64,000 nucleotides of DNA, from contig CAXMQZ010000037.1 in assembly GCA_964195975.1 (NCBI GenBank), positions 23,721 to 87,720 of the forward strand, given 5' to 3'. Source of the DNA: an uncultured Polyangiaceae bacterium. Its GTDB lineage: Bacteria; Acidobacteriota; Thermoanaerobaculia; Multivoradales; JAHEKO01. How positions within the stretch are numbered: the first letter of the stretch is position 1; every line of letters starts with the position of its first letter. Of the stretch, positions 2,081 through 51,814 are shown in pieces. The notes beneath the pieces are model-generated. The model did not search any database. It had not been told where the DNA came from and was given only the letters and a program-made list of their open reading frames with translations. The position numbers and the translations under genes were made by a program.

Positions 2081-2098
2081 GCTCCCCACCATTCAAAA

Positions 2099-11350: not shown

Positions 11351-12033
11351 CGGCCTTCTTGGAGCTCCATTCGGCGATCGAATCGGTTGGCTAGATCCAT
11401 GCTGTGGGTCACGACAAGGAGCATGTTGGACTCCCGACGGTGGAGATCGAACAGAAGGGTCGTGATCGAGTCGGCTGTGGTGCTATCGAGGCTCCCAGTG
11501 GGTTCGTCGCAGAGCAGCAAACGGGGTCGGGTCATCAAGGCCCTGGCGACGGCCACTCTCTGGCGCTCTCCGCCGGACAACTCGGCGGGCCGGTGATGCA
11601 GGCGATCCGACAGACCCACCCGTTCCACAAGGGATCGCGCCCAGTCGTCCTCTTCCTTGCTACAACGTCCGAAGGCGAGGGCGGGCATCAATACGTTTTC
11701 CAGAACGGAGTACTGAGGCAGGAGATGAGAATCCTGGAATACAAATCCAACCGTCCTGTTTCGAAAGTGGGCTAGATCGTAACCGGACAGGTCCGAGGTG
11801 TCTTGACCTGCAATCTCAACCCGACCCGAGGTCGCCGTATCGAGAGTCCCGATGATATGAAGCAGAGTGCTTTTTCCCGATCCTGAAGGACCGGTCAGTA
11901 CGACCTTTCCGGCGGCTTCGAGATCGAACGTGACTCCTCGGAGCACTTCAACCCTCTGAGATCCAAGCTCGAATGTTTTTGTGAGCTCCGAGATTCGAAG
12001 CCCAAGGTTTTCTTTCGATGGTTGTGTGTCCAT
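11335..12033 (-). CDS. ABC transporter ATP-binding protein (LolD/MacB/YbbA-like)
   Basis: Walker A GPSGSGKST, signature LSGGERQRVAVARAL, Walker B LLLCDEPTGSLD. Confidence 0.9.
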   Translation of the reverse strand: MDTQPSKENLGLRISELTKTFELGSQRVEVLRGVTFDLEAAGKVVLTGPSGSGKSTLLHIIGTLDTATSGRVEIAGQDTSDLSGYDLAHFRNRTVGFVFQDSHLLPQYSVLENVLMPALAFGRCSKEEDDWARSLVERVGLSDRLHHRPAELSGGERQRVAVARALMTRPRLLLCDEPTGSLDSTTADSITTLLFDLHRRESNMLLVVTHSMDLANRFDRRMELQEGRCLEI

Positions 12034-14812: not shown

Positions 14813-14814
14813 GG

Positions 14815-15306
14815 ATGAAATTGGACAAGAATCGAGAACCGTCGCTTCAAGAGCGCTATGCGCCAAACAACAAGTGTTTTGGCTGCGGCCCCTCAAACGC
14901 GCAGGGTTTGAGAATACGCAGCTTTCCAATCGAGGGCTCTCCGCACAGCGAAGTCGTCGCCGAATGGACACCTCGGCCCTGCTACGAGGCATTCGACAAT
15001 ATTCTCAATGGCGGCATCATCGGAACGCTCATGGATTGCCATAGCAATTGGACCGCTATCTGGCATTTGATGTGTCGTGACGATCTGGATAAGGCACCTC
15101 ACACGGTCACAGCGGATTTTCACATCATGCTGAGACGCCCAACACCAACTGATCGTCCGGTCAGACTCATAGCTCAGGCTGTGGAATCCGATGGTCCTCG
15201 GGTGAGGGTCGAGTGCAAGCTGCTGTCGGGCGAGACGGTAACGGCCTCATGTACAGGGAATTTTGTAACGGTAGGGCCTGGTCATCCTGCATATCGGCGC
15301 TGGTAG
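14815..15306 (+). CDS. PaaI-family hotdog-fold thioesterase
   Basis: 163 aa. The N-terminal ...NNKCFGCGPSNAQGLRIRSF motif is, as far as I recall, characteristic of PaaI/4HBT-type thioesterases. It begins 2 nt after the leuS stop. Confidence 0.55.
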   Translation: MKLDKNREPSLQERYAPNNKCFGCGPSNAQGLRIRSFPIEGSPHSEVVAEWTPRPCYEAFDNILNGGIIGTLMDCHSNWTAIWHLMCRDDLDKAPHTVTADFHIMLRRPTPTDRPVRLIAQAVESDGPRVRVECKLLSGETVTASCTGNFVTVGPGHPAYRRW

Positions 15307-15316
15307 GCGAGATCGA

Positions 15317-15784
15317 TCAGATAGCAGTTTCGCTGCTGTTTTCCGACGCGACGATTTTGTCCGCAATAGAGGTTGGGATCGCTATCGGGCGTAGGCCCTC
15401 CGGATCGTCCATGACGCAGCAAACCGATGCTGTCTGACCACGCGCGATGAGTTCCCCGTCGACTGTGAAGGTGATCTCGTAGCTCATCGATCGGCGGCCT
15501 ACTTTGAGTATCTGGACCCGAATCTCCAGGACGTCGCCAAGTCGTGCCGGACGGAAGTACTGACACTTGGCCTCCACCCGAGGCCACCCGATATGAAGTC
15601 CATCGATCTCCATATGGACTTCGGCACCCAGGACGCGGAGAAGCTCGTGCTCGGCGGTCTCCATGAAGACGAAGAAACGGGAGAAGTGAACGATCCCGCC
15701 CATGTCGGTGTCGGCAAATTCGACTCTACGGGACGTGTGGATCTCCGATACAGGAAATACGACATCTCGATCGGAATCAGGCAT
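15317..15784 (-). CDS. YbgC/4HBT-family acyl-CoA thioesterase (hotdog fold); start at internal Met (MPDSDRD...)
   Basis: C-terminal 155 aa ...VVFPVSEIHTSRRVEFADTDMGGIVHFSRFFVFMETAEHELL... resembles YbgC-type thioesterases. The upstream 67 codons of the ORF are Arg/Ser-rich and overlap the GT4 gene, so the internal ATG is used. Its start overlaps the GT4 stop (ATGCCTGA). Confidence 0.55.
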   Translation of the reverse strand: MPDSDRDVVFPVSEIHTSRRVEFADTDMGGIVHFSRFFVFMETAEHELLRVLGAEVHMEIDGLHIGWPRVEAKCQYFRPARLGDVLEIRVQILKVGRRSMSYEITFTVDGELIARGQTASVCCVMDDPEGLRPIAIPTSIADKIVASENSSETAI

Positions 15785-17093
15785 GAATAGCCCCCTCCTT
15801 GCTACGGCTGAGAATGTGCTCGTAGACCGCGAGAGTACGGCGGGCCATCGCTTCAGCGTTGTAGATCTGCTCGACTGCACGTCGTCCCTGCTTCCCGAGC
15901 TCGAACCTCTGGAATTGATTGTCCCCGAGCTCGCGAATCGTCTCGGCCAGGGCCTCGCTGGAATTTGGCTGAACGAGGAGGCCACCTCCCGAATTCTCGA
16001 TCAGCTCGGTGAAGGCGCCATGATTTGGCTGGACCACCGGTGTGGAAGCGGCCCAGGCTTCGAGGACAAACAGACCCTTCGGCTCCCGGTAGGTCGTCGG
16101 GACGGACAAAATATCGATATCGTGCAGCATCGCAATCTTCTGGGCTCGGTCGACCTCGCCGAGACTCTCGACGCTACCGTCGGCGATCCAGGGAGACAGT
16201 TTGCTGAGCTGCTCCTCGAAATAGACTTTGTCTCTGCTGCTCAGATAGCCAGCCAGCTTGAGCTTGAAGCGTTCGCCGCCGGGTTCCCGCTTGATCTGGT
16301 CGAAGGCATCGCAAAGAAGATGCAGTCCTTTTTCCGGACACAGCCGAGCGAGGTACCCGATGGTTACCGTGTCGAGATCGGTCTCGGTCTCTTCGGCTAC
16401 TTCGAAGTCGTCCAGGTGGATTCCCAGAGGTACGACTTGAATCCGTTCTGATGGCACTTGGAGTAGCCTCGTCATTTCCGAGGCGTAGTAGCGACTCGTA
16501 GCGACAAAGCCATCGATCTGATTTGCGTGAGCAACCATCTCGCGATGGACTCCGCGACGAAAATCGTCGGTCAATTCGGCGAGGTAGAGATCTTCCCCGG
16601 TAAGCCCACAAACCACAGGAACATCGAGCTCCTGTCGAATTGCGCCGCCGATGCCAAGAAACATGGCGTTGGTAATTTGAACCAGATCCGGTTTGAAAGT
16701 CTCCACAAACTCGAGCAACCGATGCAATTCCTTCTGCTGATACCCATCCTCTGCTTGTAGCACCGATAGAGTGAGGGCTCCGAGCAACCCGGCATCGGTC
16801 GAGCCGGCAAATCGAGACACCCAGCGGAGTAAACCTGGGCGGTCGAGGAGCCTGTCGAGAAAGCGAGGCGACCGCCTGAATAGTGAAGATTTCTGTTGCA
16901 GATAGACGTTGACCGCTCCGTAGAAGACCGGTTCGAGGCTGACGTCCTTCTCATCAGTTTTCATCGGTGTATAGGTCGGGATGAGAGCGACATCATGGCC
17001 TTTGTCGATCAAGGCCGAGGCAAGAGTGTTGTCATGTAGACAACTCCCGCAATACATACCGGCCGCGCCGGCGGCTATGTAGGCAATCTTCAC
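15777..17093 (-). CDS. Glycosyltransferase family 4 (GT-B, group 1)
   Basis: 438 aa. The EX7E region ...EPKGLFVLEAWAASTPVV is present. An N-terminal Rossmann-like domain is present. Confidence 0.8.
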   Translation of the reverse strand: MKIAYIAAGAAGMYCGSCLHDNTLASALIDKGHDVALIPTYTPMKTDEKDVSLEPVFYGAVNVYLQQKSSLFRRSPRFLDRLLDRPGLLRWVSRFAGSTDAGLLGALTLSVLQAEDGYQQKELHRLLEFVETFKPDLVQITNAMFLGIGGAIRQELDVPVVCGLTGEDLYLAELTDDFRRGVHREMVAHANQIDGFVATSRYYASEMTRLLQVPSERIQVVPLGIHLDDFEVAEETETDLDTVTIGYLARLCPEKGLHLLCDAFDQIKREPGGERFKLKLAGYLSSRDKVYFEEQLSKLSPWIADGSVESLGEVDRAQKIAMLHDIDILSVPTTYREPKGLFVLEAWAASTPVVQPNHGAFTELIENSGGGLLVQPNSSEALAETIRELGDNQFQRFELGKQGRRAVEQIYNAEAMARRTLAVYEHILSRSKEGAIHA

Positions 17094-18568
17094 GATTTGG
17101 ACTTCGTCTCAGTCAATCCGTCTGAGAAAAACCTGTTCACCACTCGAGGTTCTGGCTTCGGGCTCAAAAGCGATCCCACAATCATCGCGACAATCGCGGC
17201 CGCGAGTATGACAGCCACGGGCATAATCCCTGTACTCGCAACGGTGTAGCCGGGAGTGGCCCAGGCTTGGGACAGGAAATAGGTCCAGAGGACTGCGACG
17301 GTCAAAAGGACCGCCCAGGCTCCTTGTTTGGTGCTTCGTCGCCAGTACAGGGCCGCGACTACGATCGGAAAGAGGGAGGCGAAACCGGTAAACGACCAAA
17401 TACCAAGACGAAAAATACTCCGGTTTGAGACGAGCGAAAGCAAGTAGGTAGCCACCAGGAGCGCTACCACGAACCAGCGGCCTGTTCGTACGACACTTCG
17501 TTCTTCCGCTCCCTCGGTGGAAGCATGTCTCTTCACGATGTCCTGAGTGAAGAGTGTGCTGAGCGATAGGATTTGCGAGTCCAATGACGACATCACGGCT
17601 GCAAAAACACCTGCACCGAGCAGTCCCGCGAGCACTTTTGGGGCGAACTCCGAAATCATACGCAAGAGAACGGCATTGGAGGCTGGACCTTGTAGGTCAG
17701 GTACTGCGGCGCTTCCGGCTACGCCCAGAAGCACGCTGGGCACCCAAACGATGGCGATGCAGATTGGGTAGGCCACGATCGCGAGCTTGAACGTTTCTAC
17801 TCGCTGGGCGGTGAGCCAGTGCATGAAAATGTGGGGAAACATTCCGATCGACAGAGGTATGAATGTATAGCTGATCAATGTAGTGGCCGGGATCCTGCTG
17901 CCGTGCATCAACAAGGCTGGATCGACGCTCTTCAGGGCGCCATCGAGACCGCCCAGGTGACGAAAGATGATGACAACGGAAACGGCACCCAGAGTCATGA
18001 AAACCAGTGCCTGGAGTGTGTTGGCCCATGAGGTCGATCGGACACCCCCAACGACGACATAGATTGCTACGACAAGACATATCAGCAGGCTGCCGAGCCA
18101 TTGCGGCACCAAACCGTCGGTGATCGCTTCGAAGGTAATACCGGCTCCCATGACACCGATGAGGAGGTAGGGAACCAAGAGGGCGACAAGCAGTACGAAG
18201 AGTCCGACCCCTAGGCTTGGAGAATCCCATCGCTCGCGAAAAAACTGAACTTGGGTCACGAAACCGTGACGTTTTCCGAGTACCCACAGGCGCGTACCGA
18301 CAAACATAAACACGACTGGCACGACGAAGGCGGAGCTCGAGGCCATCAGGCTAAATACTCCGATTCCCTGGTGATAAGCCTCGCCCGAAGCTCCTAGCAT
18401 GGCAAAGGCGGTCATGTGAGTGCCAAACAGAGTCATCAGGAGCACAAATGGACCGATGGTCCGACTTGCCAGGAAGTAGTCCTCGCCGGTGCCACGGAAG
18501 AGACGATGGCCGAGCAATCCGACGCTCAAGACGAGGACGAGATAGAGAACGAGAACTGCGAGAGTCAT
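17090..18568 (-). CDS. Sodium:solute symporter family (SSS) transporter
   Basis: 492 aa polytopic protein with SSS-like topology. A DUF3311-like small partner sits immediately upstream with a 4-nt overlap. Confidence 0.8.
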   Translation of the reverse strand: MTLAVLVLYLVLVLSVGLLGHRLFRGTGEDYFLASRTIGPFVLLMTLFGTHMTAFAMLGASGEAYHQGIGVFSLMASSSAFVVPVVFMFVGTRLWVLGKRHGFVTQVQFFRERWDSPSLGVGLFVLLVALLVPYLLIGVMGAGITFEAITDGLVPQWLGSLLICLVVAIYVVVGGVRSTSWANTLQALVFMTLGAVSVVIIFRHLGGLDGALKSVDPALLMHGSRIPATTLISYTFIPLSIGMFPHIFMHWLTAQRVETFKLAIVAYPICIAIVWVPSVLLGVAGSAAVPDLQGPASNAVLLRMISEFAPKVLAGLLGAGVFAAVMSSLDSQILSLSTLFTQDIVKRHASTEGAEERSVVRTGRWFVVALLVATYLLSLVSNRSIFRLGIWSFTGFASLFPIVVAALYWRRSTKQGAWAVLLTVAVLWTYFLSQAWATPGYTVASTGIMPVAVILAAAIVAMIVGSLLSPKPEPRVVNRFFSDGLTETKSKS

Positions 18569-18768
18569 CGATCGGCCGGTTCTGTGGCACCCAGGCGCCG
18601 GACCAAAAAGGCCATGGCGAGGGAGATCAAAAGACAGTAGCCGATATGATAGGCGAGACCGACAGGGATTCCACCTAGTACGGTGTCATATCTCCGCCAG
18701 AGCCAGAAATCGTTGTGAAGGAGGTAGAGCACCGCCAACATGAACGCAACAGTGAGACTTCTATTCAA
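18565..18768 (-). CDS. DUF3311-like small membrane protein (SSS-transporter partner; YhdT-like)
   Basis: 67 aa with two TM helices. ATGA overlap with the symporter gene. YhdT/PanF-like small subunits typically sit upstream of SSS transporters. Confidence 0.5.
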   Translation of the reverse strand: MNRSLTVAFMLAVLYLLHNDFWLWRRYDTVLGGIPVGLAYHIGYCLLISLAMAFLVRRLGATEPADR

Positions 18769-20030
18769 GACGTGGTCTCCGCCGCTGCCATCTGGGAAGT
18801 TGGCGAAACGGTCTCATCGAGCCCCTTGAGAAGGTCGTCCACCGGTCGGGTGAAGACATGCCCCATCAGTAGATCGACAAGTTGTCCCTTGCACTCAGGG
18901 TAGCGTCTCAAGAATTTTGAAAAACTGAAATCGGGATCGTAGAAAGCGGATACCAGCTTGCGCATCGCTTCGGCACCTCTTCTGAGCTCAGGCTCGAAAG
19001 CACGAAGCTTGTCGATATCGATCTCGGGCTCGGACAGAGCCGCGCAGATACATTCGGCAGCCATCGCGCCTGACTTGAGAGCGAGAAACACACCCGTGGA
19101 ATATATGGGATCGACAAAACCCCCTGCGTCGCCGACTAGGACCCAACTGTCACCAACCATGGACTCGACACTGTAGGAATAGTCCTTGGCTACCAAAACG
19201 GGTCGGGCCTGTCGCGCACCCTCGAGCCGTGGACTCAAGGCGGGGCACCGTTCCAGCTGGAGTTGGAAAACACTCTGTGGATCTCCGTTGGCCCCTCGTG
19301 CCAGGTAGTCGACAGGGCCTACCACCCCTACACTGACTCGATCGTCGGGTAGTGGGATGAACCAGAACCACGCCTTGTGGTCGGTCGTGTGGAGAATGAG
19401 GGTCGCCCCGGCATCGCGCCCGCAATCACGTTGCGCCCCTTCGAAATGAGTGTAGTAGGCGGCATGGCGTAGGGTGGGATCTGGAACCAGGAGCTCGAGC
19501 TGCCGAGCAAGGAGGGCTCTTTGACCGGTTGCATCTACAACGATTCGGGCGTCGAGCTCTCCTACGGTCCCGAATTCGTCTTCGAAGCGAACACCTGTGA
19601 TCCGATCATCCTTCTCCAGATAGCGTTTCGCCCAACAACCTCGTCGGATTTCTGCGCCTCTTGTTGCTGCCTGATTGATAAGCATTTGGTCGAAGCGGCT
19701 TCGCAACACTTGCCAGGTCCGTGAGCTCTCTACCGGATCGTGATCCTCGAAATAGAACGGTGTCGTTGCTTTGCCGTTGCCGGCAAAGAACTGGACACTA
19801 CCCTTGACTGGAAATGAGCTCGTTTTCATAGTCTCGAGAACTCCCAGCTTCTGAAAAATCTGATAACAGGCCGGCATCAGAGACTCACCTATGCTAAAGG
19901 TGGGCTGAGAAGAGCGTTCCAATACGACAACTCGGTAGCCTTGCTGAGCAACAAGATTTGCAACCGTGGCGCCTCCAGGACCGCCTCCGACAACGATTAC
20001 GTCATAGTTTTCGTGTGCTTCGATGGCCAT
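18765..20030 (-). CDS. FAD-dependent oxidoreductase of the flavin-dependent halogenase family (tryptophan-halogenase-like)
   Basis: GxGxxG VVGGGPGGA, GDAGGFVDPIYSTG and the halogenase signature WxWxIP (KAWFWFIPLPDD) are present. Confidence 0.65.
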   Translation of the reverse strand: MAIEAHENYDVIVVGGGPGGATVANLVAQQGYRVVVLERSSQPTFSIGESLMPACYQIFQKLGVLETMKTSSFPVKGSVQFFAGNGKATTPFYFEDHDPVESSRTWQVLRSRFDQMLINQAATRGAEIRRGCWAKRYLEKDDRITGVRFEDEFGTVGELDARIVVDATGQRALLARQLELLVPDPTLRHAAYYTHFEGAQRDCGRDAGATLILHTTDHKAWFWFIPLPDDRVSVGVVGPVDYLARGANGDPQSVFQLQLERCPALSPRLEGARQARPVLVAKDYSYSVESMVGDSWVLVGDAGGFVDPIYSTGVFLALKSGAMAAECICAALSEPEIDIDKLRAFEPELRRGAEAMRKLVSAFYDPDFSFSKFLRRYPECKGQLVDLLMGHVFTRPVDDLLKGLDETVSPTSQMAAAETTS

Positions 20031-20032
20031 GG

Positions 20033-22243
20033 TCAGAATTTGTACTGTAGCCCGAGAATCGCGGAGAAGGGGCGGCCCGGTATGACGGAGAAGCCGCCGA
20101 AACCTCTGGTTTCGTACTCGGTGTCGGCGACATTATCCAGATTCAGCGACAGACGCCAATCACCAAGCACATAGGCGGCAACCAGGTCCAGAAGCGCATA
20201 ATCATCAAGCTCTGTTTCGTTGTCCTCGGCAATAAATTGATTGCCGACATAGCGAATACCCCCGCCCACGGTGAGTCCGCTGTCAAACTTCTGCGTCATC
20301 CAGAGCTTGGCCAGATGCTCGGGTGAAAAGGTGCTTCTGTTACCTGACCGATCCACCGTTACAAAGGCTGGAGGAAACGTGGGGATCACTACAGTCTCTG
20401 CAAATCTCGTGAGCTCTGAGACCGAGTAGGCGTAGGAAAAGAGGCCGGTCAAGCCGCTGCTCAGATGCGCTGTGACCTCGAGCTCGATCCCTCGAGACCG
20501 TTGATCACCAGACTGTTGAGTAAATCCATTATCGTCCGGGATCGCGATGTTCTCGCGCTCGAGCTCATACAAAGCGATTGTCAGACGAGCACGTCCGTCG
20601 AACAGTTCGTTCCGAATGCCGACTTCGATCTCTTGACTCTCTTCGGCGCTGCGTTCTCCGACGACCCTGGGGGAAGGTGGGGCGAAGGCGCGCGAAAAGT
20701 TGCCGTACAGCGAGATCCTCTCGGTGGGTCGATAGACCGCTCCGAACATCGGACTGACCTGACCGTCGTTACGTGAAGTATCTGTCACGTCGTCCTCGAA
20801 ATCGATCGAGTCGTAGCGGGCGCCCAGAAGTAGTTGGAATTTGGAGTTGAAGGCCATCTCGTCGATGGCGTAGGGAGCGATAACTCGAGTCTGAGAGTTC
20901 CCCGACGCCGATACATTCGGCAGCTGAAAGAGAGGCTCCATCGCTGTCTCGATCGGATCGTTTATCGATATCGGCGGCAGCAGTGCCACATCGAGCCCAT
21001 AGATGTCGTCAAATCGCGACAGCTCGATCCCAGTCAGCAATCTGTGTCGAATTGGACCTGTTTGCGCCATGAGCACGGTCTCGAATTGATTGCCAAAAAA
21101 GTCCTGCTTGTCATCGAGCTGGAGCAGAGACCGTGTGACCAGGTCTGCGGATGGCACTTGGCCTGGAATCACGAAGCCCAGTAATGTGCCATCGGTATCC
21201 CAGTCGAGCTGCCGGAAGTAGGTCTTGTTTCGAATCGCGAACGTTTCCGAGAAGCGATGCTCGACATCCACTTGGCCCCGATGAATTTTTTGTTGGGAGA
21301 AATCGAAGGGAGATCCATAGGAGGTCTCTCGATCGACCTCCGATCGATCCAGAGCGGTGACAGGAATGCCTGCGTCTGGGCTGTAGTCGGAGTCGACGTA
21401 TTCGTAATTCACATTCAGAGTCGTGTTCGGGCCCGGTCTCCACGAAAAAGCTGGATTGAGAGCCCCCGTGCTGCCCTCGGTGTTGTCTCGGTAGCCGTCG
21501 GTGTCTCGATAGAGACCGTTGAACCGGAATGCGAACTCGCCGTTTTCCGAGGCACGGTTGATGTCTAGAGCCCCCTCGTAGGTGCTAAAACTTCCGGCCG
21601 AACCTGAAAAAGTTCCAAAGTTGGCCAGGGCGGGCTGTTTGCGCACAATGTTGACCGCTGCAGCAAGTGGGTTCGGACCGTACAAGAATCCAGCGGGCCC
21701 CTTGAGCATCTCGATTCGTTCAGTGTTGTAGAGCTGGTAGAAGGTGACTTCTGGCTCGGGCGCTCCATCAGTAAGAATCAGACTACTCGACAGCGAGTCG
21801 AATCCACGAACCACGAAGAAGTCGAAAACGCCCGAACCAGTCTGTGGGTTCACGCCACTGATGTTTTCTAGCGCATCTCCCAATACGATCGAGTTCTGCT
21901 CTTGCATCAGAGCTTTGCTGACCGCACCTACGTTGAATGGTGTCCAAACCAGATCGATCGGAAGCTTGGTCGAAATGGTATTCGATGAAGGGATCAGCGG
22001 CATTGGCGCTTCCACAACCACTGTCTCCTTCTGAGTCGCTACGGGCTCGTCCTCGGAGATGTTCCCGGAATCCTGATTCTCGGGAGCGATCTCGGCCGCA
22101 TCGGCCTCAACGGCACTTGCGAGAACCGAGTTGGCGAAAAGGACGCCGACTAGCGTACAGGTAACCAGAATCCTCAACAGGGATCCTGGTCCTCTGTAAA
22201 TACTCTGCGGAGATGATTCTGGGTTCATGATTTTTCTCTTCAA
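20033..22243 (-). CDS. TonB-dependent outer-membrane receptor
   Basis: 736 aa. N-terminal signal peptide, plug/barrel architecture, C-terminal ...LGLQYKF terminal aromatic. Its start lies 3 nt from the stop of the halogenase-like gene. Confidence 0.85.
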   Translation of the reverse strand: MKRKIMNPESSPQSIYRGPGSLLRILVTCTLVGVLFANSVLASAVEADAAEIAPENQDSGNISEDEPVATQKETVVVEAPMPLIPSSNTISTKLPIDLVWTPFNVGAVSKALMQEQNSIVLGDALENISGVNPQTGSGVFDFFVVRGFDSLSSSLILTDGAPEPEVTFYQLYNTERIEMLKGPAGFLYGPNPLAAAVNIVRKQPALANFGTFSGSAGSFSTYEGALDINRASENGEFAFRFNGLYRDTDGYRDNTEGSTGALNPAFSWRPGPNTTLNVNYEYVDSDYSPDAGIPVTALDRSEVDRETSYGSPFDFSQQKIHRGQVDVEHRFSETFAIRNKTYFRQLDWDTDGTLLGFVIPGQVPSADLVTRSLLQLDDKQDFFGNQFETVLMAQTGPIRHRLLTGIELSRFDDIYGLDVALLPPISINDPIETAMEPLFQLPNVSASGNSQTRVIAPYAIDEMAFNSKFQLLLGARYDSIDFEDDVTDTSRNDGQVSPMFGAVYRPTERISLYGNFSRAFAPPSPRVVGERSAEESQEIEVGIRNELFDGRARLTIALYELERENIAIPDDNGFTQQSGDQRSRGIELEVTAHLSSGLTGLFSYAYSVSELTRFAETVVIPTFPPAFVTVDRSGNRSTFSPEHLAKLWMTQKFDSGLTVGGGIRYVGNQFIAEDNETELDDYALLDLVAAYVLGDWRLSLNLDNVADTEYETRGFGGFSVIPGRPFSAILGLQYKF

Positions 22244-22282
22244 ACGGCTGAATAGCCCGGGAGGTACGGTGGTTGTGGTGGA

Positions 22283-23614
22283 TTAGGTGTATCTTCCGCC
22301 GCGGTGCTCTGGGTCATAGAACTCTGGCAGCAGCGTATCGACCCGGAGGAGCCCTTTTGTAGTCAGACAAATCTGGTCTCCGTCGACATACAACATCCCT
22401 CGGCTCTCAAAGCTGCGAAGCTGATCGGAGAAAGCATCGACAACATCGACGTCGAACTTGGAAGTGAAGTATTCGGCGTTCACACGACCAAGCTTGAGTT
22501 GCAGAATCAGCTCACGAATAAGCTGCTCTCTTGCGGAGGTCGAATAGGCCCGTGCTATCGGCAACTCAGGCACGTCGATCCGCGACAGATATTCACCCCA
22601 ACTGTCGACATTCTGAAAGTGGACTCCGCCGATGTGCGAAAACGAGGCTACTCCTGTGCCCAGCAAGTCGCATCCATGCCAGACCGAATCGCGATAAACA
22701 AAGCGGGCTCGCGCAGGGTCACGCACCATGGTGTAGGCGCTCGAGACCTGGTATCCGACCTTCGCCAGTTCCTGAAAGGCGTAGTCGTGCCAGGCTCGTT
22801 TGTCATCCCAGTCCGCCAGAGGTTGATCGAATGAGCCCTCGAGGATATTGCGCGAGTATCGGGTGTTGAAAGGCAGCTCCAACTGGTAGATGGTGACGCT
22901 GTCCGGTGCCAAGTCGACCGTTCTGGCCACCGAGTGGCGCCACGTATCCCAGGTTTCACCCACCATTCCCGCGATGAGATCGATATTGAGCTGATCGAAA
23001 TCGAGCTCATCGATCCAGGGGAGGCATCGGTCGATTTCCTTGGAGACGTGGGCACGCCCATTGGCGCTCAATATGGAGTCGTCAAAGCTCTCGATCCCGA
23101 GACTCAAGCGAGTTACACCGATGTCGCGAATTGCTTCCAGCTTGGAGCGAGTCAGAGTTCCCGGTTCGCACTCGAAAGTCACCTCTTCAACGCCAGTCCA
23201 GGGGATTGCTTCCTTGAGTCGAGCTGCCAAGGCTCGGAGGTGAGTGGAGCTTATGAACGACGGAGTTCCTCCTCCGAAATATACAAACTTGGGTTGTCTG
23301 TCGCGAATCGCGGTATGGGTGCTGAAAAGCTCGACTTCGGTAGCCAGGGCATCCAGGTAGCGACCAATCTCGTCGGAGCTCTTGTCGGTAAAGACCTTGA
23401 AGTAGCAGAATTTGCAGCGTTTGCGGCAAAACGGGATGTGGAGATAGAGACCGAAGTCTCTTGCAGTTTCTGGTTCGCGATCAAGGGCTTCAAGGGCCAC
23501 ATTCAGCCCATCATGGCGCCAATGGGAGTAGGGAGGATAATTCGACACGAAGACACTGCCGACCTCGGTCTCGGTGTGGGTAGGTGGCGTGGTCGCTGAC
23601 TCTGGTTGGCTCAT
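22283..23614 (-). CDS. Radical SAM enzyme of the HemN/HemW/HutW (coproporphyrinogen-III-oxidase-like) family
   Basis: CxxxCxxC as HIPFCRKRCKFCYF, followed by GGGTPS. Length 443 aa with a HemN C-terminal domain. Confidence 0.8.
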   Translation of the reverse strand: MSQPESATTPPTHTETEVGSVFVSNYPPYSHWRHDGLNVALEALDREPETARDFGLYLHIPFCRKRCKFCYFKVFTDKSSDEIGRYLDALATEVELFSTHTAIRDRQPKFVYFGGGTPSFISSTHLRALAARLKEAIPWTGVEEVTFECEPGTLTRSKLEAIRDIGVTRLSLGIESFDDSILSANGRAHVSKEIDRCLPWIDELDFDQLNIDLIAGMVGETWDTWRHSVARTVDLAPDSVTIYQLELPFNTRYSRNILEGSFDQPLADWDDKRAWHDYAFQELAKVGYQVSSAYTMVRDPARARFVYRDSVWHGCDLLGTGVASFSHIGGVHFQNVDSWGEYLSRIDVPELPIARAYSTSAREQLIRELILQLKLGRVNAEYFTSKFDVDVVDAFSDQLRSFESRGMLYVDGDQICLTTKGLLRVDTLLPEFYDPEHRGGRYT

Positions 23615-24738
23615 AATTTACGTACCGGTTCTGCGAAAGCGAAGAGAGTACCATCGACCGTGCCTATTATCAGATATCCCGCCGCGACGCTGGGCGAGGC
23701 GGTCATTGACTCGCCGGTGTCGAAGTTCCATACGACGGAACCGGTCTCCAGGTTTAGAGCCAGGAGCTGGCCGGCCTGGGTTGCGATGAATACTCGATCC
23801 CCTACAATTACGGGGGAAGAGTCAATCCGGTCGCCGGTTGTGTACGTCCATCGGATCTCTCCGGTCTTGGGGTTCAGGGCGTACACGTTCTTGTCGCGGC
23901 CACCGAGGACAGCCAGCTGCTGCGTAACTGCAGCCGAGGCGTAGAAGGGAAAGTCTCGTTCGGGATTGTCGTAGGTCCAGGCCAATTCGCCTTTCGCCAG
24001 ATCGATCCCCAGAATCTGGCTCTCGAAGTTGCCAACTACCGAGATATTTCCTACAACAGCTGAGCTAGCCCCTACATACCCGCCGAGAGATATTCGCTTG
24101 ATCTCCTGACCGTCGTTCAACCGCACGACCCGAAGATATCCGTCGCACCCAGCCGAGATTGCGTTCTGTTGCCAGATTGCGGGGGTCGCGTTTACATAGC
24201 CCTCGGTTTCAAGCCTCCAGCGCAGCTCTCCCGACTCGGGATCTAGGCAGTAGAGGTAGTTGTCATAGGAGCCAAAGAGCAGGCATCCGCTGCCGAGATT
24301 AGGCGAGGAGGTAATTCCAGCGTCGGTCTCGAAAACCCATTTTTTTGTGCCTGAGGTGGCGTCCAGGGCGTGGAGGAGTCCTGATTCGTTGCCAAAGAAG
24401 ATGGTGCCGTCGGACACCAGGGGTGAAGATTTGATTTCTGAATCGCTCTCGAATCGCCATCGCTCTCGGCCTGAGCGCAGATCCAACGCCCAGAGCGTTC
24501 CGTCCATGTCACCGGTGTAGACGCTGTTGCCAGAGATTGCGACTGTGGCTTCGAAACCGGACTCATCGTGAAAGACCCAGCGAGGCGCGAGATCTTCAGG
24601 CAGGTTGCTTTCGGTAAACCCGCTGAGCTGAGGGTTGTGGCGGAAACTGGCCCAGTCGCCTTCATTGCCGTGCTGAGCCTCGTCGGCAATCACCGAGTGG
24701 GCAGGACCCCCAAGGATGATGAGAGCCAATGTGAGCAT
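23611..24738 (-). CDS. PQQ-repeat beta-propeller protein (BamB-like), secreted; start at internal Met MLTLALIILGG
   Basis: Repeated ...G.l.AlD..tG...W modules (WALDLRSGRERW, LHALDATSGTKKW, LYCLDPESGELRW, VYALNPKTGEIRW, LLALNLETGSVVW). Confidence 0.7.
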   Translation of the reverse strand: MLTLALIILGGPAHSVIADEAQHGNEGDWASFRHNPQLSGFTESNLPEDLAPRWVFHDESGFEATVAISGNSVYTGDMDGTLWALDLRSGRERWRFESDSEIKSSPLVSDGTIFFGNESGLLHALDATSGTKKWVFETDAGITSSPNLGSGCLLFGSYDNYLYCLDPESGELRWRLETEGYVNATPAIWQQNAISAGCDGYLRVVRLNDGQEIKRISLGGYVGASSAVVGNISVVGNFESQILGIDLAKGELAWTYDNPERDFPFYASAAVTQQLAVLGGRDKNVYALNPKTGEIRWTYTTGDRIDSSPVIVGDRVFIATQAGQLLALNLETGSVVWNFDTGESMTASPSVAAGYLIIGTVDGTLFAFAEPVRKL

Positions 24739-24787
24739 CTTGAGGCTTTGCCTCGAGAGCAAGTATTGCCCACAGGTTTCGAGAAGG

Positions 24788-26002
24788 TCAGTATGCCGAT
24801 TCATAGATCTCGAAAAGCTCCGCCTGGCTCACGGGTCTGGGATTAAATCGTGCCGTCCACTCGAGGACGGCCGCCTCAGCCAGTGCTTCCAGATCCCCGC
24901 GCGAGACACCGAGATCGTGCAGGCTGTCCGGCAGCTCGAGAGTCTGACGAAGCTGCTCGATATAGGTAGCCAGGGTGTCTCCAGGTTCATCTTTTCGGTT
25001 CAGTCCGGCGAGGTCGTTTAGAGTTGAGTAGTCGTCGGCTACCACGCTGCTGTTAAAGCGGACGACATGCGGCAATAGAACACCAATAGCCTGTCCATGA
25101 GAAATTCCGTACGTCGCAGTCAATGGGTTTGCGCAGGCATGCGCGGCGCCGAGCATCGACTGCTCGATCGCGGCGCCCGCTAGGTGTGCCCCCAAGAGCA
25201 TCTCTCCTACATCTGCTAGGTCGGCTTCTTTCGACAGAGGCGATTGGAGGCTCGAATGGAGAAGCTCCCAGGCTCGCATCGACCAGACTCTCGAGATTGG
25301 GTTTCTACGTGTGCTGACATGACTTTCGATTGCATGGCTGAGGGCATCGATGCCGGCCGCGGCCGCCACTCGAGTGGGCGCGGAAGCGATCAATCCAGGA
25401 TCGAGGACCACTGTACGGAACAGGGCCTGCGGATCACCGCAGGCCATTTTGCGCCCCGATTCGGAGTCTGAGATCAGGGCAAACGACTGCGCTTCGCTGC
25501 CCGTTCCGGCGGTCGTCGGAATTCCGATCGAAGGCAACATTGAAGCATGGGTCTGGCCATAGCCCCAATAGTCGGTTATGGATCCGCCATTGGTGAGCAA
25601 GAAGTTGATGGCTTTGGCGCAGTCCATGCTACTGCCGCCGCCCAGTCCAACAATGCAGTCCGGCTCGAAGTCCGCAACCTGTCTCGCAGCGGCTTCTACC
25701 AGGTCGGTAGTAGGATTCTCGGTGGCACCATCATAAAGACGGACTTCAATCGAGCCTGTAGAGAGCGTTTCGAGTGCCCTTTGTACATGACCAGCCTGGT
25801 GCACCCCCTGGTCGGAAACGACCAGCACCCTCTTGGCGGCGAGATCCTCGACAATGGTTCCTAGCTCGCCTAGGCGACCCTCGCCAAAAAAAACCCGGAT
25901 AGCTCCCACATCGGCTTCCCAGTGGTACCGAGGACCGGTGCCGAGATAGCGGCTCCGCGCGGCCTCAGAATCGGTATCGAGACCGTTTCGTCGTTGTTTG
26001 TT
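24788..26002 (-). CDS. Iron-containing (group III) alcohol dehydrogenase; start at internal ATG 4 nt after the upstream stop (GAGG RBS)
   Basis: GGGSSMDCAK motif and ...RVLVVSDQGV.... The ORF-track N-terminal extension overlaps the upstream gene by 59 nt and is probably not translated. Confidence 0.8.
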   Translation of the reverse strand, partial: NKQRRNGLDTDSEAARSRYLGTGPRYHWEADVGAIRVFFGEGRLGELGTIVEDLAAKRVLVVSDQGVHQAGHVQRALETLSTGSIEVRLYDGATENPTTDLVEAAARQVADFEPDCIVGLGGGSSMDCAKAINFLLTNGGSITDYWGYGQTHASMLPSIGIPTTAGTGSEAQSFALISDSESGRKMACGDPQALFRTVVLDPGLIASAPTRVAAAAGIDALSHAIESHVSTRRNPISRVWSMRAWELLHSSLQSPLSKEADLADVGEMLLGAHLAGAAIEQSMLGAAHACANPLTATYGISHGQAIGVLLPHVVRFNSSVVADDYSTLNDLAGLNRKDEPGDTLATYIEQLRQTLELPDSLHDLGVSRGDLEALAEAAVLEWTARFNPRPVSQAELFEIYESAY

Positions 26003-26009
26003 CATTGCC

Positions 26010-27488
26010 TCAGACGCCGCCGCTCGCGGCTGAGTCGCCGACGTTTGTCGGCGACCCGCTGGATTCATGGGGTCCCTGAAGCGCTCTCTGACGGTAGAGA
26101 TGCTCGAACAGATTGCCTTCGTGCGGCTGATCCCAGGCGACTTCGCAGGTCGAGTAGGCGCCCAGGTTCAAGCGTTCGATGTTCGGTGCGGTCATCAACT
26201 CCTGTCGGAATTGGGGGTCCTCGGTGAGTGCGGTTACGACCAAGCTCGACCCCATGTTTTCGACGATGGCACTCTGTCTCATCTCGACTACTGTGACGAA
26301 AGGGAATAGGTATTCGGCCTTGGCCAGGGGGTGGTCTGGGTCGCTGCAATAGATCACGGTAGGCAGCAAGAAAGCGCAGCCATCTACGTGGGCGACACGA
26401 TCTCCGCGGCGAAGCTTGGAGGTAATGTCCTCGGCTCCCGGTTGTCGCAGCTGCGAATCGATCTGAGCCGACAAACGATCGGCGATCCGGGCGTCGGGAA
26501 AGGCCGCCAGCCGGGCGTCGGGGTCGTCGAGGGGGAGGGCCTGGATTTGGACCAGGCGCTCGGCCAGGGCTTCGGCTATCTCTCTGCCGGACTTCGCGGT
26601 CCAGACACCTGACGCGTTGATGCACGACCTACCACCGTTCTTGGCCACAGAATCAACCGTTAGATCGAGATACTCCTGCCAACGGTCCGCTCCATCCTCT
26701 CCCAAGATCACCTTGCTCCAGCCTGGGCCGTGAATTTGGACTCTCGGATCGCCTTCCCACGGCTCTACGGTTGCTCGGTCTCCGAACAGCATCGACCGAC
26801 CACATCGTAGAAGGATCTCACCGACCCCCGAGTAGTCTGTCGGGTAAAAACTGATGGCTTCGGGTGCGCAACCGGCCGCTAGAAACGACTGTGCTATCCG
26901 GAACGGGGACCACGGTTCACGGCTGCCAGGTTTGAGCACCAATGGGACTTTCAACGGGATGGCTGGAATCCAGAGCGAGTGAACTCCCGGTGAGTTGCTT
27001 GGCAGAATGACTCCGAGGGAGTCCGTTTCACGACGGAAGGAAAGACAGCGGCCTTCCTGTAGCGTCCACCCTTGATCTATGACCTCTGGCTCGATCCCCC
27101 TCGTCAGCCCACCCAAGACTGTCTCCATCTCGGCCATCACGAAACGGATCTTCTCCATATTCGATCGGACGAGCGCCTGTGGCATGCCGGTAGTCGAAGA
27201 AAGCTGCTCGACATAGAGATCGGGTGATTGAGACGATGTGCCGACTGGAAGCTCCGAGTCCATGAAGAATCCTGCCGCTTTGCGGCAGATTTCCAGGAGC
27301 TCTCTTGCGCTGAGACTTTCGAGTGCCTGCCTGTTGGATCGAGTCGATCCGAGATCTCGAGCTATCAGGCCCGAATTGGCCATGCTGACCTCAGCCACGA
27401 CGTCACCCGTTCGGACGTCTGTCAGGGAGTTGGTCGCAAGGCTCGTATAGGAGGTGCCTGCTCTGAGCAGCGGGATCTGGATCATCAA
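26010..27488 (-). CDS. Aldehyde-dehydrogenase-superfamily protein, LuxC-like acyl-CoA/acyl-protein reductase candidate
   Basis: 492 aa. ALDH-like core ...ILPSNSPGVHSLWIPAIPLKVPLVLKPGSREP... with a candidate catalytic Cys in NGGRSCINASG. It is paired with an adenylating enzyme immediately upstream. Confidence 0.5.
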   Translation of the reverse strand: MMIQIPLLRAGTSYTSLATNSLTDVRTGDVVAEVSMANSGLIARDLGSTRSNRQALESLSARELLEICRKAAGFFMDSELPVGTSSQSPDLYVEQLSSTTGMPQALVRSNMEKIRFVMAEMETVLGGLTRGIEPEVIDQGWTLQEGRCLSFRRETDSLGVILPSNSPGVHSLWIPAIPLKVPLVLKPGSREPWSPFRIAQSFLAAGCAPEAISFYPTDYSGVGEILLRCGRSMLFGDRATVEPWEGDPRVQIHGPGWSKVILGEDGADRWQEYLDLTVDSVAKNGGRSCINASGVWTAKSGREIAEALAERLVQIQALPLDDPDARLAAFPDARIADRLSAQIDSQLRQPGAEDITSKLRRGDRVAHVDGCAFLLPTVIYCSDPDHPLAKAEYLFPFVTVVEMRQSAIVENMGSSLVVTALTEDPQFRQELMTAPNIERLNLGAYSTCEVAWDQPHEGNLFEHLYRQRALQGPHESSGSPTNVGDSAASGGV

Positions 27489-28600
27489 TACACTCCAACC
27501 ACAACCGATTCTTCAAAACGGGAGAAGAGACGCAAGTTGCTGACACCGTCCCAAGGGTAGGGCTCGATCGGCTCGGCTCGCTCGCCCTCGTCTCGCTCCA
27601 GAAACCGAGGCATCAGAAACTCTTTGGTAAGAGTTGTCAGCATGACGCGGCCGGTCTGGCCATATGGGACCGTCTTGCCCGTGTCTTCAGGGTCGACCAA
27701 TTCAAAGACGGCTCGAGGCGAGGGCGGGTAGTAGGTGATCTTGTAGTCATCATGGCGGTCGAATGGCTTACAACAAGCCAAGCCCATAAGAGTATTTCCG
27801 TAGGTAGGGATGAAATCTACTCCTGGCACCAGCTCTTCACGTGCAAACCGGTGGAATTGAGCGTTCATCTCCGTGCCGCCACAGAAGATGCCGGTAATTC
27901 CCATCTTGGTGAGGGAGATTTTTTCGCAAACAGCTTCAAGCAGCTTTGGAGTCGTGAAAATGCAAGTGACGTTTTCATGGGATCTAAGAATCTTGAGTCC
28001 CTGGTCGACGATATGGTCCTTGTAGTCTTGGAGATCTTGATGACGGCCCAAACGGATCAACCGGTTTACCCAACGAGGGTCGAGATCGACATGAAAGGAA
28101 ACCCCACCCCGATGTTGAGCCAGATGTTCGATCGCCAATCTCAGCCGTCTTGGTCCGGTGGGTCCTAGCATCAGCCAATCGGCGCCAGATGGGAACGTAG
28201 TGCTGTCGAGGGTGTCACTGAACATCTCATAGTCGGTTTGGAAGTCCCGAATATTGATCCGTGACTTGGGAAGGCCGGTCGAGCCACCGGTTTCGAAGAC
28301 ATAGAGAGGCTCGTCTTGCAACGCCTTCGGCACCCATCTTCGAATCGGACCGCCACGGAGCCACTCGTCTTGAAAGTGTCCCAGAACCTTCAGATCGCCA
28401 TAGTTATGGATGACTTCCCGAGGGTCGAAATCTAGCTTGCCAGCAAAGTCGAGCCAGAAGGGACAACCTGTTTCCGGACCGAAATGCCAAAGAATCATCT
28501 CTCGTACATGCTCGTCGAGAGTCTTCTTTGCGGCCTCGATCCGAGTCTGGAGAGCCGTAGGATCCTTGTTCGTAGCGGGGTCACTGTGATGATCGGTCAT
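27485..28600 (-). CDS. LuxE/PaaK-like acyl-adenylate-forming enzyme (acyl-protein synthetase family candidate)
   Basis: 371 aa. The adenylation motif ETGGSTGLPK matches the (S/T)(S/G)G(S/T)TGxPK consensus. Its length fits LuxE rather than full ANL ligases. Confidence 0.5.
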   Translation of the reverse strand: MTDHHSDPATNKDPTALQTRIEAAKKTLDEHVREMILWHFGPETGCPFWLDFAGKLDFDPREVIHNYGDLKVLGHFQDEWLRGGPIRRWVPKALQDEPLYVFETGGSTGLPKSRINIRDFQTDYEMFSDTLDSTTFPSGADWLMLGPTGPRRLRLAIEHLAQHRGGVSFHVDLDPRWVNRLIRLGRHQDLQDYKDHIVDQGLKILRSHENVTCIFTTPKLLEAVCEKISLTKMGITGIFCGGTEMNAQFHRFAREELVPGVDFIPTYGNTLMGLACCKPFDRHDDYKITYYPPSPRAVFELVDPEDTGKTVPYGQTGRVMLTTLTKEFLMPRFLERDEGERAEPIEPYPWDGVSNLRLFSRFEESVVVGVY

Positions 28601-34985: not shown

Positions 34986-35047
34986 GTTCCAAGGAATCCG
35001 ATCGTTCGTCACCTTCTTCGTCTGGGGTTTCTGGACGAAGCGACCCG

Positions 35048-50764: not shown

Positions 50765-50841
50765 AAACGCGCCCTACTTTGCCGTCTTATGCCTGGACAA
50801 AACGGCTGACAACGTCGAAGTATACTGTACTCGATGAGAGG

Positions 50842-51813: not shown

Positions 51814-51814
51814 A

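Follow-up and report, generated by a model that had tools for sequence, protein, structure and literature searches.

A multi-phylum operon built on a halogenase-family flavoprotein and a HemN-like radical SAM protein may serve phenolic metabolism

What does a TonB-dependent receptor do when its gene lies between those of a halogenase-like flavoprotein and a HemN-like radical S-adenosylmethionine (SAM) protein? This arrangement occurs in 64,000 nucleotides of contig CAXMQZ010000037.1 (assembly GCA_964195975.1, positions 23,721 to 87,720), a whole stretch that we call the window, from an uncultured Polyangiaceae bacterium placed by GTDB in the Thermoanaerobaculia (Acidobacteriota). A first-pass annotation had proposed import of haem or another tetrapyrrole by the receptor, followed by anaerobic opening or modification by the radical SAM protein in the manner of HutW/ChuW and processing of the product by the flavoenzyme; its weaker alternative was an aromatic substrate, and it took the DUF3311-SSS pair (a small membrane protein and a sodium:solute symporter) for the inner-membrane step. 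We confirmed the three open reading frames (ORFs) at the positions given there, on the minus strand, and found them to be the middle of an 11-gene minus-strand run at 15317-28600 (Table 1). We tentatively read this run as an operon for a small-molecule pathway around a flavin-dependent halogenase acting on a phenolic aromatic acid of the hydroxybenzoate type. In this reading, for which our confidence falls a little short of even, the receptor is an accessory specific to certain lineages.

From 5' to 3', the run encodes an EhpF-like adenylase, an EhpG-like reductase, an iron-containing alcohol dehydrogenase (Fe-ADH), a secreted beta-propeller, the radical SAM protein, the receptor, the halogenase, a small DUF3311 protein, a sodium:solute symporter (SSS), a GT4 glycosyltransferase and a thioesterase. 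Neighbouring ORFs overlap or lie no more than 39 nt apart, and promoter- or terminator-like sites within the run were not commoner than in shuffled sequence. The end of the radical SAM gene and the start of the receptor gene are 39 nt apart. The receptor stop codon (TGA) is followed by CC and then by the flavoprotein ATG, a spacer of 2 nt rather than the 3 nt first reported.

The gene order is identical in three metagenome contigs, where the flavoproteins are 57–74% identical. A genome scan with one genome per species yielded 80 loci, all from metagenome-assembled genomes (MAGs), in Acidobacteriota (including Thermoanaerobaculia), Planctomycetota, KSB1, Latescibacterota, Gemmatimonadota and Poribacteria. 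We mapped the window proteins onto these loci, clustered all locus ORFs, and restricted counts by phylum to loci in which 4.5 kb or more of sequence precedes the flavoprotein gene (23 in Acidobacteriota, 24 in Planctomycetota). The radical SAM gene was upstream in 22 acidobacterial and 11 planctomycete loci. The receptor gene adjoined the halogenase gene in 17 of the 23 acidobacterial loci and in none of the 24 planctomycete loci; a UbiC-like gene did so in 11 planctomycete loci and in no acidobacterial one. Identities of the operon proteins across Acidobacteriota, Planctomycetota, KSB1 and Latescibacterota were 45–84%, and metagenomic homologues number thousands. We conclude that the arrangement of the three genes is not due to chance, as the gene order recurs in unrelated contigs and in dozens of genome loci, and that the conserved core is the link between radical SAM protein and halogenase. 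The receptor is a lineage-restricted accessory: none of the 24 planctomycete loci has it, and among the 22 acidobacterial loci with the radical SAM gene it is missing from 6.

Reduced versions of the locus were also seen. Two loci from Deltaproteobacteria and Gemmatimonadetes MAGs (L012, L013) have the order receptor, PaaK-like ligase, halogenase and SSS, and no radical SAM gene was seen there in the sequence examined. Four Poribacteria MAGs (L014, L017, L018, L023) have the halogenase homologue without other cluster genes; an ORF of the PhyH family (phytanoyl-CoA dioxygenase-like) recurs there on the same strand and, in the loci for which positions were read, lies about 8 kb downstream. Directly 5' of the halogenase gene in six cluster-less Planctomycetota loci (L054, L057, L062, L070, L072, L083) is an ORF that we assigned by eye as MarR-type regulator-like.

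The flavoprotein matched Pfam Trp_halogenase with 105 bits against a cut-off of 21, as well as FAD_binding_3. The two halogenase signatures described in the first-pass annotation were borne out: GxGxxG is G15-G-G-P-G-G20, with G15, G17 and P18 kept in 83 of 84 homologues, and WxWxIP is WFWFIP at 221–226, with W221, W223 and P226 present in all 84 and I225 in 83. The lysine on which that annotation had made the assignment depend is present as K76; it is invariant in the 84 homologues and aligns with the catalytic lysine of CndH (FPIKRGGTF) and FasV. A further motif, FxDPxxSxG (F305, D307, P308, S311, G313), is equally invariant. The catalytic glutamate that the first-pass annotation also named is known only from tryptophan halogenases, a type to which this flavoprotein does not belong. 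A profile built from 15 homologues and searched against solved structures matched FasV (8zop, E 6e-88), CndH, Mpy16, PltA, Bmp2 and CmlS (E up to 3e-65), and also ChlB4. Its score was 298 bits for FasV, 79 for geranylgeranyl reductase, 35 for QhpG (7ctq) and 32 for tryptophan 5-halogenase (8fov). The AlphaFold model (pLDDT 90.4) gave a consistent picture: the top 20 Foldseek neighbours (TM 0.78–0.88) comprised FasV, Bmp2, ChlB4, CndH, PltA, Mpy16, RadH and CmlS, and the sole non-halogenase among them was 3nix, an uncharacterised Cytophaga flavoprotein; for the halogenases matched by the profile, TM was 0.79–0.88. We conclude from sequence and predicted structure that the flavoprotein is a genuine member of the flavin-dependent halogenase family and a predicted enzyme.

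Which halogenases does it resemble? With the phenol/pyrrole or 'variant B' enzymes (CndH, PltA, Mpy16, Bmp2, FasV, ChlB4, CmlS) it shares the fold, the four sequence features above, a length of about 420 aa and the lack of the C-terminal module of tryptophan halogenases. It differs in being just 26–31% identical to them, and in that its gene has no carrier protein, polyketide synthase (PKS) or nonribosomal peptide synthetase (NRPS) gene nearby and sits in a transport-rich operon. We rejected the PrnA/RebH tryptophan halogenase type on the missing large C-terminal module and on the 8fov score set against that of FasV; the PF04820 match consists of two stretches, the better covering profile positions 152–387 of 458. 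Receptor genes adjoining a PF04820-family flavoprotein are also found in Xanthomonas and Caulobacter. Those flavoproteins are of the tryptophan halogenase type, about 500 aa long, and encoded in carbohydrate-utilisation loci, whereas the window protein is of the 420-aa phenol/pyrrole type and lies in a different operon. Menaquinone tailoring of the MenK/MenJ type, by a class C methylase and a geranylgeranyl-reductase-like flavoprotein, was likewise set aside (MenJ 51 bits, halogenase 298).

The neighbourhood also recalls the maturation of protein-derived cofactors, in which the flavoprotein and the radical SAM protein would modify an aromatic residue of the beta-propeller or the Fe-ADH, as do QhpG/QhpD or LodB/GoxB. 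A radical SAM protein, a flavoprotein, a beta-propeller and an ATP-binding cassette (ABC) exporter together are reminiscent of the qhp operon for quinohaemoprotein amine dehydrogenase, and the flavoprotein matched QhpG (144 bits) and LodB (115 bits), both below cut-off. Halogenases are much closer, however, as the profile scores for QhpG and FasV attest; a small-subunit gene is lacking and there is no room for one, and the radical SAM protein is HemN-like rather than SPASM-type. We consider this explanation very unlikely.

The radical SAM protein carries the features of the HemN-like branch of its superfamily: CxxxCxxC (C63-x3-C67-x2-C70) and GGGTP, kept in 41 of 42 orthologues, and HemN_C. 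These, together with a HemN-like length including an N-terminal extension, are shared with HemN, HemW, ChuW/HutW and class C enzymes of the NocN/NosN type. The first-pass assignment to the HemN family, at 443 aa, thus stood, and the proposed HutW/ChuW identity did not: the protein stays below every curated cut-off, scoring 186.8 bits against 400 for HutW/ChuW (TIGR04107), 186.5 against 380 for STM4012, 174 against 325 for HemN (TIGR00538) and 140.8 against 205.4 for HemW (TIGR00539). It is 25% identical to HemN, 23% to HemW and 21% to ChuW (O157) of E. coli. Its cluster motif reads CRKRCKFCYF, without the fourth cysteine of the HemN motif CxxxCxxCxC; it lacks the RNFQGYT insertion of HemN and has YRDSVWH where HemW shows HNLNYW, so that the HNxxYW motif is absent. 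The only solved relatives retrieved by sequence were HemN and the class C methyltransferase NocN. Orthologues are very numerous (49–83% identical), and the closest named homologue, from an Acidobacteriota MAG, is 77% identical. By sequence, the protein is HemN-like yet belongs to none of the named families. Members of its family begin with GSxFVSNYPP and end in a near-invariant LLPxFY...R-Y-T, both absent from E. coli HemN, HemW and ChuW.

The receptor, for its part, is of the siderophore class. It passed TIGR01783 (276.1 bits, cut-off 223.5), with Pfam scores of 62 bits for the plug and 182 for the barrel, and its translation shows a signal peptide and a TonB-box-like ETVVVEA. Against the haem/haemoglobin models TIGR01785 and TIGR01786 it scored 70.7 bits (cut-off 316.85) and 48.4 bits (cut-off 323.75), in matches spanning only about 80 residues. 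Its solved relatives are Fiu and PiuA (the two best), FetA, FhuA, CntO and FoxA, with no haem receptor among them. We took E. coli hemN, hemW, chuW and the chu locus as the reference for haem context; with ChuA, the plug alone aligned (31 bits). Neither ChuS/X/Y-type, hem or haem-ABC genes nor other haem-utilisation genes were found in the operon or the 64-kb window. A search for an upstream Fur box, suggested by the first-pass annotation, found no site with 3 or fewer mismatches to the E. coli consensus, which is weak evidence because acidobacterial sites may differ. Rfam families at the gathering threshold, including riboswitches, and tRNA genes were absent across the window.

The haem model can claim that the receptor gene directly follows the radical SAM gene and that HutW is nominally the top curated radical SAM model, in effect tied with STM4012. 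Yet the score for HutW does not reach half of the cut-off, the receptor fails both haem models, and the radical SAM gene remains linked to the halogenase gene in genomes without the receptor. Family scores, solved relatives, the comparisons with ChuW and ChuA and the missing haem genes together lead us to conclude that the operon is not a haem-uptake or haem-degradation system; we regard the haem model as essentially excluded.

If not haem, what is the substrate? The first two genes of the operon offer a clue. The adenylase aligns full length with the EhpF structure, and a phenazine cluster on an E. coli plasmid encodes an EhpF-type protein with which it shares 32% identity (E 2e-50); within related loci its identity is 62–84%. 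The next protein and the product of the plasmid gene adjoining EhpF share 26% identity across 95% of the length of the former, and the two genes are adjacent and in the same order in both systems. Aligned with E. coli AldA, this EhpG-like protein keeps the invariant nucleophilic cysteine (C289), and the general-base glutamate of AldA is replaced by histidine (glutamine in EhpG). Retention of the cysteine and loss of the glutamate fit a reductase of the LuxC kind better than an oxidase of aldehydes, and plasmid EhpG weakly matches LuxC; the window protein is, from its sequence, probably a thioester or acyl-adenylate reductase. EhpF and EhpG together reportedly convert a carboxylate to an aldehyde. 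An Fe-ADH encoded beside these two would carry the reduction through to the alcohol; the one in the operon reaches no curated equivalog cut-off. In griseoluteic acid, a hydroxymethyl group stands in place of a carboxylate of the precursor phenazine-1,6-dicarboxylate, a conversion carried out by EhpF-O (PMC3175449). The window differs from this D-alanylgriseoluteic acid pathway in that no phenazine core genes (phzA-G/ehpA-E) were found in the operon or the 64-kb window, and the substrate is therefore not expected to be a phenazine.

The beta-propeller has an N-terminal hydrophobic, signal-like segment in its translation, and in Acidobacteriota as well as Planctomycetota its gene keeps this place upstream of the one for the radical SAM protein, with extra copies in relatives. 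A KSB1 MAG (L010, 3417-9767) has two proteins of about 800 aa in place of the receptor between the radical SAM and halogenase genes, each a BamB-like propeller joined to a PF00756 esterase domain (enterobactin-esterase family); a third propeller gene follows them.

Downstream of the halogenase, the symporter gene follows directly in 37 of 69 loci. The best curated model for its product is PanF, at 136 bits and under the cut-off of 328, and the DUF3311 family passes its Pfam cut-off in a relative. The GT4 gene downstream of the symporter is kept in loci of the Acidobacteriota type. The thioesterase scores 65.4 bits against 68.7 for TIGR00051, and its solved relatives are YbgC, 4-hydroxybenzoyl-CoA thioesterase and 1,4-dihydroxy-2-naphthoyl-CoA (DHNA-CoA) hydrolase. 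Many other genomes have the GT4 and thioesterase genes directly followed by those of a LolD-like ATPase, a double-FtsX permease of about 1130 aa and a small EamA-like membrane protein. In the window, the corresponding ATPase and permease are probably the exporter of the cluster. There, leuS (820 aa) and a 163-aa hotdog-fold ORF (12350-15306, plus strand) separate the thioesterase gene from the ABC/FtsX genes, an insertion also present in contigs L002 and L003; thioesterase and ABC genes are contiguous in other phyla.

These same genes could be assembled into a pathway for a halogenated or cyclopropanated glycolipid. The thioesterase would free a fatty acid, the EhpF/EhpG-like pair would act as LuxE/LuxC and the Fe-ADH would yield a fatty alcohol; GT4 would glycosylate it, the HemN-like enzyme and the halogenase would modify the chain, and a DevA/LolD-like ABC system would export the lipid. 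The ABC ATPase indeed matches both the LolD and DevA families and the permease weakly LolC/E and DevC; the thioesterase is YbgC/FadM-like, EhpG is weakly LuxC-like, and a 2026 preprint (Loureiro et al., bioRxiv 2026) reports that similar clusters match BrtI, an exporter gene for the bartoloside glycolipids. However, the adenylase is far nearer to EhpF, with its aromatic substrate, than to any LuxE model, all close relatives of the halogenase act on aromatic or pyrrole rings, and a chorismate lyase, as in the planctomycete version, is unfit for a lipid pathway. We judge a glycolipid product quite improbable. A LuxE/LuxC identity for the ligase and aldehyde-dehydrogenase-like pair was rejected as such: the window proteins gave no Lux matches in Pfam or NCBIfam, and homology to EhpF/EhpG instead. 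A ribosomally synthesized and post-translationally modified peptide (RiPP) or a carrier-protein pathway was also discarded, the intergenic gaps being too short for a precursor or acyl carrier protein gene.

The planctomycete loci bear on the nature of the aromatic acid. Directly upstream of the halogenase gene, 11 of the 24 loci encode a 185-aa protein, which is carried by 13 of the 80 loci overall; of the 11 UbiC-like genes in Planctomycetota, 10 co-occur with the radical SAM gene. We aligned this family and found that it matches the DUF98 structure 2nwi in a profile search (E 0.001). One arginine, one glutamate and a PLGR motif are invariant, and we take the two residues, matched by eye, to be the equivalents of Arg76 and Glu155 of UbiC. 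The window halogenase is 42–48% identical to those of the lyase-bearing planctomycete relatives. Panter et al. (10.1101/723874) linked 3,5-dibromo-p-anisic acid from a planctomycete to a comparable chorismate-lyase/halogenase pair, baaA-baaB, as a proposal that had no genetic proof. The UbiC-like gene of the window's planctomycete relatives lies directly 5' of the halogenase gene on the same strand, the layout described for BaaA/BaaB of Planctomycetales strain 10988; a further locus with a chorismate lyase and a flavin-dependent brominase is that of Bmp6/Bmp5 in Pseudoalteromonas. The window differs in having the receptor in the place of the lyase, and the published locus has two genes, to which nine more are added here (radical SAM, EhpF/G-like, Fe-ADH, propeller, SSS, DUF3311, GT4 and thioesterase).

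Collectively, these observations suggest a pathway whose substrate would most plausibly be 4-hydroxybenzoate or a close relative. The halogenase would place chlorine or bromine ortho to the phenol, with FADH2 from a general flavin reductase, because the operon encodes none. By homology, the EhpF-like adenylase and the EhpG-like, cysteine-dependent reductase would then take the aryl carboxylate to the aldehyde, much as has been proposed for phenazine-1,6-dicarboxylate on the way to D-alanylgriseoluteic acid, and the Fe-ADH would reduce this aldehyde further, to the benzyl alcohol. Next, the HemN-like radical SAM protein may modify the molecule by radical chemistry; if class C enzymes are a guide, this would most likely be a C-methylation. 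To finish, GT4 would glycosylate the product, the hotdog thioesterase would release or proofread an acyl-thioester, and the LolD/MacB-type ABC system would export the result. Gene swaps suggest how the acid is supplied: in Planctomycetota it would be made inside the cell, because a UbiC-like chorismate lyase occupies the slot directly upstream of the halogenase, and in the window and most Acidobacteriota the Fiu/PiuA-like receptor may take up either the acid or, perhaps complexed with a metal, the finished phenolate. DUF3311-SSS is a candidate for the inner-membrane step.

Several observations weigh against this pathway. The similarity of the 185-aa family to E. coli UbiC is weak (hhalign E 1e-4 over 110 columns, probability 58%), its Pfam search gave no match, and no UbiC-like gene was found anywhere in the 64-kb window. 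The lyase-bearing planctomycete loci mostly lack the EhpF/EhpG pair and GT4 while retaining the Fe-ADH, and the steps proposed here can therefore not follow in this order everywhere. For EhpF and EhpG, too, the roles in the phenazine pathway were arrived at by inference. The closest characterised halogenases mostly use substrates bound to a carrier protein, and the operon encodes neither a carrier protein nor a flavin reductase. Two importers among eleven genes are unusual for a purely biosynthetic cluster. From its architecture, the planctomycete pair is likely the equivalent of BaaA/BaaB, and BaaB was likened to Bmp5, not to Bmp2 (10.1101/723874).

The two importers in particular raise the question of whether the operon instead takes up and transforms an exogenous aromatic compound, for scavenging, detoxification or catabolism. 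Receptor and secreted propeller would capture a phenolic or halogenated aromatic in the periplasm, DUF3311-SSS would import it, and flavoenzyme, radical SAM protein, dehydrogenases, ligase and thioesterase would convert it. Periplasmic propellers, fused in KSB1 to PF00756 esterase domains in the receptor slot, are consistent with capture; genes for Fe-ADH, aldehyde-dehydrogenase-like protein, ligase and thioesterase are common in aromatic catabolism, and DdvT of Sphingobium SYK-6, a TonB-dependent receptor for a lignin-derived biphenyl acid, is a precedent for aromatic uptake. But the chorismate lyase of the planctomycete version is an anabolic enzyme, GT4 and the MacB/LolD-type exporter point outward, the aldehyde-dehydrogenase-like protein is without the glutamate required for aldehyde oxidation, and the operon has no ring-cleavage or beta-oxidation genes. 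We consider uptake and transformation unlikely, while giving it real weight.

The receptor class leads to another explanation, a phenolate or catecholate metallophore: a chelator derived from (halo)hydroxybenzoate would be made, exported by the ABC system and recaptured as its metal complex by the Fiu/PiuA-like receptor. Biosynthesis, exporter and receptor are the usual layout of such systems; the receptor passes the siderophore model, its nearest solved relatives (Fiu, PiuA) are catecholate receptors, and the KSB1 variant carries enterobactin-esterase-family domains in the receptor slot. Yet the operon has no NRPS, NRPS-independent siderophore (NIS) synthetase or catechol-forming (EntA/B/C-type) gene, an SSS protein is not the usual siderophore importer, the receptor is missing from all planctomycete and six acidobacterial versions, and no Fur box was found with the E. 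coli consensus, the only one tried. A metallophore is accordingly improbable in our estimate.

Returning to the halogenase-centred phenolic pathway, its supply step can be put more pointedly as 'make' swapped for 'take', with Planctomycetota synthesising the acid and Acidobacteriota scavenging it through the receptor encoded in the slot of the lyase, both on the way to a halogenated hydroxybenzyl metabolite modified by the radical SAM protein. DUF3311-SSS could then serve as a dedicated halide importer, an idea modelled on the animal sodium/iodide symporter of the same transporter family. We give the swap and the halide importer, taken together, a low probability.

Has this operon been described? 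Full-text literature searches returned no paper describing it, save one August 2026 preprint on similar clusters. Its 'Halo_AMP' clusters, from sponge and seawater metagenomes, combine a halogenase with an AMP-binding enzyme and are all orphan (Loureiro et al., bioRxiv 2026). The operon likewise encodes a flavin-dependent halogenase together with an AMP-binding enzyme. According to the preprint, genes for PQQ-like, radical SAM, glycosyltransferase, thioesterase and TonB proteins are frequent in these clusters, and their hosts are Acidobacteriota, Latescibacterota and Poribacteria. The group analysed in depth there has cytochrome P450s, which the operon lacks; 20 groups are distinguished, and the exact architecture of the operon could not be confirmed among them from the text. 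The preprint does not mention the EhpF/G homology, the lyase/receptor swap or a wider distribution beyond sponges. The homology to EhpF/EhpG, the distinct HemN-like subfamily, the exchange of lyase and receptor between Planctomycetota and Acidobacteriota and the tight link of halogenase with DUF3311-SSS thus appear to be new observations.

Most work on flavin-dependent halogenases has concerned rare clusters for secondary metabolites in cultured actinomycetes, pseudomonads and myxobacteria. An operon spread over several phyla hints that soils, sediments, seawater and sponges harbour a widespread metabolite, organohalogen or at the least phenolic, that has gone unrecognised. The operon brings together enzymes that are seldom combined: a carboxylate reductase of the EhpF/EhpG type outside phenazine biosynthesis, a HemN-like radical SAM subfamily and BamB-like periplasmic propellers. 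It is also a concrete candidate setting in which to place the orphan Halo_AMP clusters and the unresolved steps to planctomycete bromo-anisic acid. Should the exchange of receptor and lyase mean that the substrate is scavenged, TonB-dependent uptake would gain a further case, with an aromatic compound that is not a siderophore.

Table 1. Genes of the operon, in 5' to 3' order, and of the candidate exporter, with positions in the window
Feature	Coordinates	Strand	Basis of assignment
EhpF-like atypical ANL adenylating enzyme, 371 aa, first operon gene	27485..28600	-	full-length EhpF structure 3hgu, E 9e-42
EhpG-like aldehyde-dehydrogenase-superfamily protein, 492 aa	26010..27488	-	homology to plasmid ehp-cluster gene beside EhpF
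Iron-containing alcohol dehydrogenase, listed 426 aa	24788..26068	-	Pfam Fe-ADH and ADH_Fe_C
Secreted BamB/PQQ-like beta-propeller, 397 aa	23611..24804	-	Pfam Beta-prop_ACSF4 249 bits and PQQ_2
HemN-like radical SAM protein, distinct uncharacterised subfamily, 443 aa	22283..23614	-	Pfam Radical_SAM and HemN_C; conserved motifs
TonB-dependent receptor, siderophore class, 736 aa	20033..22243	-	plug and barrel; TIGR01783
Flavin-dependent halogenase (predicted), phenol/pyrrole class, 421 aa	18765..20030	-	family profile, AlphaFold model, invariant motifs
DUF3311 small membrane protein, 58 aa, presumed symporter accessory subunit	18565..18741	-	weak DUF3311 match; overlaps symporter start by 4 nt
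Sodium:solute symporter, PanF/PutP-like, 492 aa	17090..18568	-	Pfam SSF 149 bits
GT4 family glycosyltransferase, 438 aa	15777..17093	-	Pfam Glycos_transf_1 and Glyco_transf_4
YbgC/FadM-like hotdog thioesterase, 155 aa, last operon gene	15317..15784	-	Pfam 4HBT and 4HBT_2
LolD-like ABC ATPase	11335-12033	-	Pfam ABC_tran; LolD 254 bits, cut-off 308
Double-FtsX/MacB-like permease, 1132 aa	7952-11350	-	Pfam FtsX, MacB_PCD

The true start of the Fe-ADH is likely 26005, giving about 405 aa, with orthologues of 381–411 aa. About 4 kb past the FtsX gene, at 1094-4024 on the plus strand, lies a tripartite ATP-independent periplasmic (TRAP) transporter of the TAXI type (NMT1_3 binding protein and DctM-family membrane protein). 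It may be a further conserved neighbour, because a TRAP transporter directly follows the last genes of the cluster in two planctomycete loci (L046, 18608-21216; L081, 18526-21144).

The rest of the window holds lipid-related genes unrelated to the operon, namely a WS/DGAT wax-ester synthase (39263-40648, plus strand) and two CDP-alcohol phosphatidyltransferase genes, after which comes an MMPL transporter (50704-55563, plus strand). A second, unusually long sodium:solute symporter of 695 aa is encoded at 41924-44011 (minus strand). Two further large proteins were seen: one of 805 aa with ASH/HYDIN/DUF1573-type Ig-like repeats (34814-37231, plus strand), and one of 995 aa with response-regulator receiver and PPDK_N (pyruvate phosphate dikinase nucleotide-binding) domains (58742-61729, minus strand).

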